Below are positions 5,911 to 6,697 of a DNA stretch of 61,842 nt, in pieces; within the stretch, counting starts at the first letter, position 1; every line of letters begins with the position of its first letter. The stretch is from positions 1 to 61,842 of the forward strand of contig MQRK01233060.1 in the NCBI GenBank assembly GCA_001938485.1, written 5' to 3'. Under the pieces are notes generated by a model. The model searched no databases. It worked only from the letters and a program-made list of their open reading frames with translations, and was not told the DNA's origin. The stretch comes from Girardia tigrina. Lineage: Eukaryota. Position numbers and translations under genes: made by a program.

Positions 5911-6697
5911 AAATTGTGGAGGTTTACTTTAATCTTATTTATTATTCTTGGAATGAATCAAACACAAGCTCTTGTAGCGTATGATTGTTCTCAGACTGAA
6001 GTCGGAAAAATTAATTCTCTTCTAGACGTAGCAGAATGTTCAGAAGTTTATCTGTTACATATTCAAGAGAAAACAAATGTTTTGTATCATCTATATCAGG
6101 AATCTGGATTTCGTAGAGCTAAAGTAAGAGAATTTATTGTGAAAAGAGCAACTTATATTTATCATTGTGGAAAATGGAGTCATACTTCTATTATCAAGAT
6201 AGATGCAATTCCCAGACCTGTGGAGATATTACCTGAAAATTGTGAAGCTGCGTTTCAAACCAAAGAATTAAAAATTGGTGAAACTTTAAAACTCGCAGCT
6301 AAAGAAGGAGCAATTACGTGAGAATCAGTTATTAGAAAGGGAGTTATAGAAGTAAATGGTGATTGTGAAGGCGAACCTGTAAAATTAGGAGGAAAAATTA
6401 TACAAAAAATTATGATTTCGGAAGAGTATCAAACAGAATTAAGAACATTTGATGGAATATTTGACGATGCAACTGGAAAATTACAATCACATCCATTTTG
6501 CAACTTTAGAAAATCAAGCTGTCAGACTGGAGTCAGTTTTATTGTATAATGTTAATTACAAAGAGTGCAATTTGACATTTTTGAAATCAGCAGACTTTAT
6601 TGAAGCTCAGGGAATGCAAATTAGAGAAAGAGCGGATATTTTAAAGCCAAAAAAGTACCAAACTAGAAAGGTATATCCAATAATTCAAAAGAAATGA
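5911..6697 (+). pseudogene. env: Envelope glycoprotein N-terminal part, chuvirus G-like, with internal signal peptide
   Basis: Hydrophobic KLWRFTLILFIILGMNQTQA, then LVAYDCS, SLLDVAEC, HCGKWSHTS, NGDCEG, CNFRKSSCQTG and (after a frameshift) YKECNL. The cysteine and motif order matches chuvirus glycoproteins (GYDC, SLLDVGEC, CGMHSH, DGxCxG). In-frame stop at 6319; truncated at ~6697. Confidence 0.75.

Follow-up and report, generated by a model that had tools for sequence, protein, structure and literature searches.

A decayed, Burro-like Ty3/gypsy element with a gB-type envelope fragment behind a putative internal signal

Introduction

A stretch of 61,842 nucleotides from Girardia tigrina (contig MQRK01233060.1), here called the window, contains a short coding region that resembles a chuvirus glycoprotein and lies behind a gag. 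The locus raises two questions: what kind of element carried such a glycoprotein, and how an envelope protein (Env) placed behind Gag might be set free. A sequence-only reading of this DNA proposed that a gypsy-like lineage had captured the glycoprotein independently, and that host signal peptidase could separate Env from the Gag polyprotein without a viral protease.

The window is AT-rich, of animal origin, and contains exons of the cadherin, NPL4, and RCC1-like types as well as mariner-type fragments. A long protocadherin-like exon with cadherin repeats (PF00028; weak Cadherin_2) is found at 26915-27883, RCC1-repeat exons at 9300-10000 (by eye only) and 14481-14846, and an NPL4 exon at 30033-30383 on the minus strand. 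Tc1/mariner-type transposase fragments, two of them with Pfam matches, lie at 13462-14165 (-), 40724-41242 (-), 43863-44207, and 60611-60988. A long inverted repeat extends over 43728-46510, and a tandem repeat with a 21-base period over 9-209.

A chuvirus-like glycoprotein fragment

Positions 5911-6694 encode a signal-like segment followed by the 241 N-terminal residues of a chuvirus-like glycoprotein of the gB type (class III), in two parts:

5911..5970 (+), internal signal-peptide-like segment; hydrophobic core followed by TQA; Kyte-Doolittle 11-mer 2.85
5971..6694 (+), N-terminal 241 residues of the Env ectodomain; PF24664; 91-95% identity to residues 866-1138 of the database protein P0138

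In the frame 5836-6321, a hydrophobic run is followed by TQA/LVAYDC; the last codon of the signal is 5968-5970, and the mature protein would start at 5971. This signal-peptidase-like site and the series of Cys motifs, both pointed out in the sequence-only reading, are present: the nine Cys of the stretch are invariant in 40/40 aligned relatives, and eight of the nine are kept in the window copy. The same frame matches PF24664 (Monjiviricetes_fusion) with E 2.5e-16 and 59 bits against a Pfam cut-off of 27, which excludes a chance match and bears out the assignment to a chuvirus-like glycoprotein.

Only residues 898-1138 of an ectodomain of about 545 residues are represented. The env piece carries an in-frame stop at 6319, has frame changes near 5865 and 6540, and is truncated at about 6695; no match to the rest of env or to pol was found anywhere in the whole window. 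Beyond 6695, a related contig (run X4) continues with other letters, and in the window itself AT-rich DNA comes next, with a microsatellite and an assembly gap. Where env is cut, just 5' of the gap, a different and highly abundant repeat (6644-6960) starts.

An HMMER search with Env returned 130 relatives, and a word-index search with a 212-residue Env piece returned nothing among longer proteins. The nearest named virus protein is the glycoprotein (G) of a chuvirus, Tacheng tick virus 4 (P0082), with 25% identity to the Env of an intact sister element (E 3e-53). A structural model was made for P0004, a member of the Env clade with 37% identity to the window piece (pLDDT 75). Its PDB match is herpesvirus gB (E 9e-14), and its matches in BFVD are chuvirus and chu-like glycoproteins, Tacheng tick virus 4 G at the top (E 1e-44). 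A PDB sequence search with the Env profile gave weak gB matches only (E 0.2). By the fold modelled on P0004, Env is thus classed as a gB-type, class III fusogen that would presumably act in membrane fusion.

The decayed LTR element

The glycoprotein fragment very probably belongs to a Ty3/gypsy LTR element of the Burro-like or GAG-ENV-POL errantivirus kind, whose intact relatives encode a polyprotein; the window has a dead copy of this repeated element, truncated at its 3' end. The window copy retains a single LTR, a Trp-like primer site, gag, the ubiquitin-like domains, and the Env piece, and lacks pol; compared with an intact sister, it has three in-frame stops and six frame changes. Its nearest labelled relatives are planarian, which makes the non-arthropod host proposed in the sequence-only reading plausible. 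The parts upstream of the signal-like segment are as follows:

2446..3056 (+), candidate 5' LTR, 611 bp, TGTTGGG...CCCAACA, with a 7-bp terminal inverted repeat and inferred boundaries
3061..3072 (+), tRNA-Trp-like primer-binding site; its reverse complement equals 11/12 bases of the Trp_CCA 3' end, by eye
3263..3857 (+), capsid-like N-terminal portion of gag, broken; 89-92% identical to residues 1-198 of the sister
4105..4340 (+), three CCHC zinc knuckles (nucleocapsid); PF00098, three stretches, E 2.6e-10
4903..5067 (+), ubiquitin-like domain 1; PF00240, E 1.3e-5, at the cut-off score
5441..5608 (+), ubiquitin/SUMO-like domain 2; 86% identical to residues 725-780 of the sister
5607..5861 (+), acidic Gag-Env linker; 81% identical to residues 780-864 of the sister; frame change near 5865

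No second copy of the candidate LTR was found in the window; the 3' LTR and target-site duplication are missing because this copy is cut off. The summed contig depth climbs from about 2320-2490 onward, near the start of the candidate LTR, and 2307-2493 is covered by one contig with 0 differences. The Trp_CCA 3' end used for the primer-site match is a list entry in supplement 1 of PMC13524379, not the tRNA of the host.

The CCHC knuckles confirm the gypsy-type gag that had been proposed upstream of Env. The capsid-like part has a frame change near 3650, a stop at 3753, and a further frame change at 3860-3877; this region also matches the N-termini of P0143, P0005, P0141, P0140, P0018, P0023, and P0060, the last of which carries Retrotrans_gag. 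An in-frame stop at 4771 lies 5' of ubiquitin-like domain 1, which has weak matches in six other polyproteins. The second domain has a frame change on each side in the window, and the corresponding sister residues 725-780 match PF11976 below its cut-off (E 0.002). Between the two domains is a helical stretch (5070-5440) with no Pfam name and no match outside the sister family.

Four of 24 runs were aligned, none of them known RNA; the small shares in aquatic, sediment, and leaf-litter metagenomes carry no information on habitat. The whole element is spanned, in many variant copies, by contigs from runs X1, X2, and X4, and not by those from X24. Thousands of contig pieces from X1 and X2 align, a depth that does not equal copy number: the high-depth variant contigs over the element show a repeat family rather than how many copies it has. 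A joint between 2484 and 5849 was considered as splicing and rejected; it occurs in a single DNA contig with a 24-base side.

Intact sisters and the polyprotein

Two database proteins, P0136 and P0138, are 3222 aa each, about 90% identical to the window element, and 99.5% alike. A search with the ubiquitin-like region found P0132 (93% identity), whose cluster includes both. All seven pieces of the window element match P0138, with 81-95% identity. As predicted proteins read with Pfam, the sisters carry in one chain Gag (capsid and three CCHC knuckles), a ubiquitin-like domain, the helical stretch, the second ubiquitin-like domain, the linker, the signal, the Env ectodomain, a transmembrane segment (TM), protease (PR), reverse transcriptase (RT), RNase H (RH), integrase (IN), and an extension. 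The sister Env matches PF24664 with E 5e-85. Hydrophobic segments at 875-891 and 1442-1458 (the TM) flank the ectodomain, and a second hydrophobic stretch follows the TM at 1475-1491.

The PR-RT-RH-IN order is found in P0136 and P0138, whereas the window copy lacks pol. The best PDB matches of the sister Pol are Ty3 Gag-Pol (E 2e-118) and Ty3 RT (E 5e-85). In Pfam, P0136 has gypsy-type RT_RNaseH and Integrase_H2C2 matches and no match to Peptidase_A17 or DUF1759, which are family markers of BEL/Pao elements. The suggestion of a gypsy-like carrier therefore holds, in the narrower form of Ty3/gypsy.

The evidence for a single frame in the sisters comes from database gene calls; searches of viral_contigs and metagenome_contigs turned up no DNA of any intact copy. 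The sister contigs measure 10,697 bp (P0136) and 10,545 bp (P0138), which leaves little room for introns in a gene for 3222 aa. A Gag-like N-terminus, Env, PR, RT, RH, and IN are also joined in one protein in P0140, P0141, P0143, and P0023; P0047, P0149, and P0136 cross the Gag/Env joint in one frame; and one cluster has 13 listed members of identical length (3771 aa). P0002 and P0016 are plainly chimeric gene models.

Some relatives have further domains. P0008, P0015, P0060, and P0140-P0143 contain two to four aspartic-protease domains per polyprotein, some of them 3' of the integrase. In P0004, a Bcl-2-like stretch (9-70; Pfam E 1e-3, below the cut-off) directly precedes the Env signal, and similar stretches are seen by eye in P0005 and P0037; the window/sister family has no match to it.

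The sisters also bear on whether the window holds an element at all. A fragment of a chuvirus G, landed by chance beside an unrelated gag as a non-retroviral endogenous viral element, would account for the different frames of gag and env in the window and for the missing pol, and such neighbourhoods are common in arthropods (PMC10084718). This explanation is hardly credible, however: in sisters about 90% identical (P0136, P0138), unless these are artefacts of assembly, a single frame runs through gag, env, and pol, and related contigs reach high depth over gag as well as over env.

A putative internal signal at the Gag-Env joint

The signal-like segment was compared across 20 relatives whose Env is embedded in a longer protein (the chimeric P0002 and P0016 being left out); six of these, with fewer than 200 upstream residues, may be fragments. 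All 20 have a hydrophobic core that lies 13-21 residues upstream of the first Cys, compared with 2/347 upstream control windows. Small residues occupy positions -1 and -3, in the same register, in 19/20. A Met at -40 to -22 occurs in seven of the 20, against 181/516 control windows (35%, the chance level) and 20/26 stand-alone glycoproteins. Cleavage was judged by simple hydropathy and the -3/-1 rule.

These counts agree with the reading that Env is in frame with Gag behind an internal signal, and a conserved env start codon, the finding that would have told against it, does not appear. Given a conserved internal signal and no conserved start Met, cleavage by host signal peptidase is the probable means by which the Env N-terminus is freed.

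Two other accounts of the segment have to be weighed. According to the first, the frame is indeed continuous, yet Env comes mostly from an mRNA that is spliced or started internally, and the segment is an ordinary N-terminal signal peptide. Drosophila errantiviruses make Env from such an mRNA, with an N-terminal signal peptide, and a one-to-one output of Gag, Env, and Pol, as a single polyprotein would give, is unusual for retroelements. The distance from the signal to the first Cys is also that of stand-alone glycoproteins (median 18 in internal Envs vs 17, in the same register), and an intact sister has a Met 47 residues upstream of the first Cys. Yet a Met near the signal is no more frequent than chance, the Met at -47 is replaced in P0047, and the last CAG/TAG upstream of the signal, among the CAG/TAG acceptors scored, is at 5747, about 165 bases away. 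An Env made mostly from its own mRNA is accordingly considered very improbable.

In the second account, which is improbable as well, the segment remains uncleaved as a signal-anchor, or the protease of the element or signal peptide peptidase cuts it, so that Env would stay joined to Gag until maturation. The multiple aspartic-protease domains of several relatives would suit such processing, and gB-type ectodomains are described as lying between a signal peptide and a TM in some cases and between two TMs in others (PMC13524379). Against this, small residues recur at -1 and -3, in one register, across diverged relatives, which fits selection for signal peptidase, and the cut would fall on the lumenal side, beyond the reach of a cytosolic protease.

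A model of polyprotein processing

With signal peptidase as the probable agent at the joint, the intact polyprotein may be processed as follows. Gag would be synthesized in the cytosol; the internal signal would then insert into the ER membrane, and host signal peptidase would cut after TQA. The ectodomain would fold in the ER lumen as a gB-like fusogen until the TM (1442-1458) stopped transfer and Pol again emerged on the cytosolic side. The cut signal would stay on Gag as a C-terminal membrane anchor, and Pol would hang on the Env tail until the element's own aspartic protease freed it and matured Gag.

The proposal of release without a viral protease thus survives in part. It is possible at the Gag/Env joint; the Env tail, however, continues into PR-RT-IN, and because it is still joined to Pol the protease of the element is probably still needed. 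Since Gag, Env, and Pol would be tethered to one membrane, assembly and budding there would be favoured. The hydrophobic stretch at 1475-1491, if it is a real membrane crossing, would place Pol in the lumen; it is read here as part of the Env tail, and a similar stretch follows the TM in an alignment of mostly stand-alone glycoproteins. The window copy itself is unable to make any of these products. What the model offers is a testable scheme (i.e., a conserved internal signal, an Env with no start codon of its own, a membrane-anchored Gag, and Pol on the Env tail), which the available published text on Burro and GAG-ENV-POL elements does not spell out.

A putative second membrane unit after the integrase

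In seven of eight full-length proteins examined, the integrase is followed by a signal-like segment, then by 220-380 residues that contain glycosylation sequons, and finally by a TM at the C-terminus; this count includes the near-sisters P0140 and P0141. The unit is clear in P0140, P0141, P0143, P0007, and P0015. The signal is weaker (1.72) in P0136, where the unit spans 2811-3192; P0033 has several segments, and P0142 has none. The window copy lacks this part of the element.

The post-integrase ectodomains align weakly across families (E 2e-4 to 0.9 in a set of seven sequences, the sister pair excepted). An Atlas search with one of them gave fibronectin type III (0.84), to be taken as a lead only, and the same search with the ectodomain of a second family gave no match. 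A single-sequence fold of the domain reached pLDDT 36. A complex prediction for Env and the post-integrase domain scored 0.00 with the alignment not used, and is evidence neither way.

The unit might serve the fusogen as an attachment partner, act as a decoy, or be captured cargo. Tentatively, the intact relatives may be two-glycoprotein viruses whose single frame crosses the ER membrane four times, with a post-integrase protein (possibly a fast-evolving, glycosylated, fibronectin type III-like ectodomain) acting as the attachment or trigger partner of the gB-like fusogen; this is a possibility on the unlikely side. Such a role would be that of gD and gH/gL for herpesvirus gB. If true, a virion protein of this kind would bear on how gB-type retroelements pick and enter cells, which is named as unknown in PMC13524379. 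The unit was not found in the text of the published accounts, though figures and Repbase entries may cover it, and this putative membrane protein of the intact relatives is possibly new.

Capture or long association

The sequence-only reading took the glycoprotein to be an independent capture. In an Env tree of 55 rows, the window piece and P0136 fall within a 17-row clade of polyprotein-borne Envs (SH-aLRT 96); the named chuvirus G and two proteins from beetle genomes fall outside it. The tree is unrooted, was made by a quick method without bootstrap, has long branches, and includes one named chuvirus and no labelled BEL/Pao (Anakin) sequence; P0138, P0139, P0144, P0147, and P0148 were left out as near-duplicates. 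Clustering of the label "internal Env" is not significant against shuffles (85/500). A stand-alone chuvirus G nested among Chuviridae was also considered and rejected, the window Env falling in a separate, polyprotein-internal clade in this tree with its one named chuvirus.

A 9-row tree of RT-RH repeats the Env groups (P0023, P0033), (P0140, P0141), and (P0142, P0143, P0015). Since the Env and RT trees give the same groups, the association appears old, with no fresh capture; the trees point to an Env that has long travelled, by co-divergence, with this Pol lineage.

That a gypsy element captured a chuvirus glycoprotein separately, in this lineage alone, as a counterpart of the Anakin event in mosquito BEL/Pao elements, is rather unlikely. 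Such a capture would agree with a chuvirus G (P0082) as both the nearest named virus protein and the top structural match, with a gypsy carrier and a gene order unlike that of Anakin, and with the finding that GAG-ENV-POL elements are not monophyletic in POL (PMC13524379). The Env clade, however, is a deep one that leaves out the named chuvirus G, its groups agree with those of RT, and an ancient, pre-bilaterian association is argued for in PMC13524379.

Comparison with known systems

The arrangement of env in frame between gag and pol is already published (PMC6431247, PMC13524379). It was described in the planarian element Burro/GYPSM1, called the first such case, whose env has matches to mononegavirus fusion proteins and is preceded by a Bcl-2-like stretch (PMC6431247). 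Compared by description only, Burro/GYPSM1 resembles the sisters as a gypsy-like element with three CCHC knuckles, a Ubi/SUMO-like domain (PF11976), an in-frame env, and one polyprotein. It differs in its larger size (4873-5140 aa vs 3222 aa in the sisters) and in its LTR, that of the window element being about 0.6 kb; P0136, unlike Burro, has no MATH, BIR, ankyrin, BCL-2, or dUTPase match at E <= 0.1 (PMC6431247). On the strength of the 3222-aa length and the missing giant-Burro domains, the element is called Burro-like and is not filed as Burro.

GAG-ENV-POL gypsy elements with a gB-type Env are known from Nematoda, Bryozoa, and Platyhelminthes; their Env resembles Chuviridae glycoproteins, and an ancient origin is argued (PMC13524379). 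The sisters share with these errantiviruses the gene order, the Ty3/gypsy Pol, the gB-type Env, and an ectodomain set between a signal or TM and a TM. Smed_errantivirus_1 and 2 are of the C1a type, named for a cysteine-bridge pattern of the flatworm elements, with an HSV/gB-type ENV (PMC13524379). Short motifs from the Smed_errantivirus_1 Env row of that paper are found unchanged in P0002, P0016, and P0057. Identity to the sister Env is 59% for P0002, over 141 residues, and also 59% for P0057, over 70 residues. By eye, none of the six Schmidtea rows of PMC13524379 is the window family. The available main text of that paper has 0 mentions of polyprotein, peptidase, ubiquitin, or fibronectin.

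Two further systems were set aside. Troyka was dropped, as its ends are CG..CG (PMC12440569) vs TG..CA here, and the available part of the account of rotifer ORF3 (PMC5408684) has nothing bearing on the window element.

Tacheng tick virus 4 G (P0082) shares with the window Env the PF24664 family, the Cys series, and the class III fold. Unlike the polyprotein Env, it is encoded by a stand-alone gene with an N-terminal signal, and it sits at 25% identity on a separate branch. Certain nematode endogenous retroviruses reportedly have a continuous gag-env-pro-pol frame. These elements, from Sacco et al. 2022, include env before pol in a metavirus, as cited in PMC13524379. Anakin, a mosquito BEL/Pao element with a chuvirus G, places the same glycoprotein family on an LTR retrotransposon (PMC7642597), but its carrier is BEL/Pao, whereas the present family has a Ty3-like Pol, with Env placed between Gag and protease; in arthropods, no clear gypsy capture was found in 2023 (PMC10084718). 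Atlas virus, a hookworm belpaovirus, likewise joins Gag, Pol, and envelope glycoproteins (GN and GC) in one polyprotein, and differs in its BEL/Pao carrier, its class II fusogen, and its C-terminal Env (PMC9094657). Among these systems, the window holds an ordinary fossil of a published, envelope-carrying kind of gypsy element, classed as a new GAG-ENV-POL, gB-type family that is Burro-like but not Burro.
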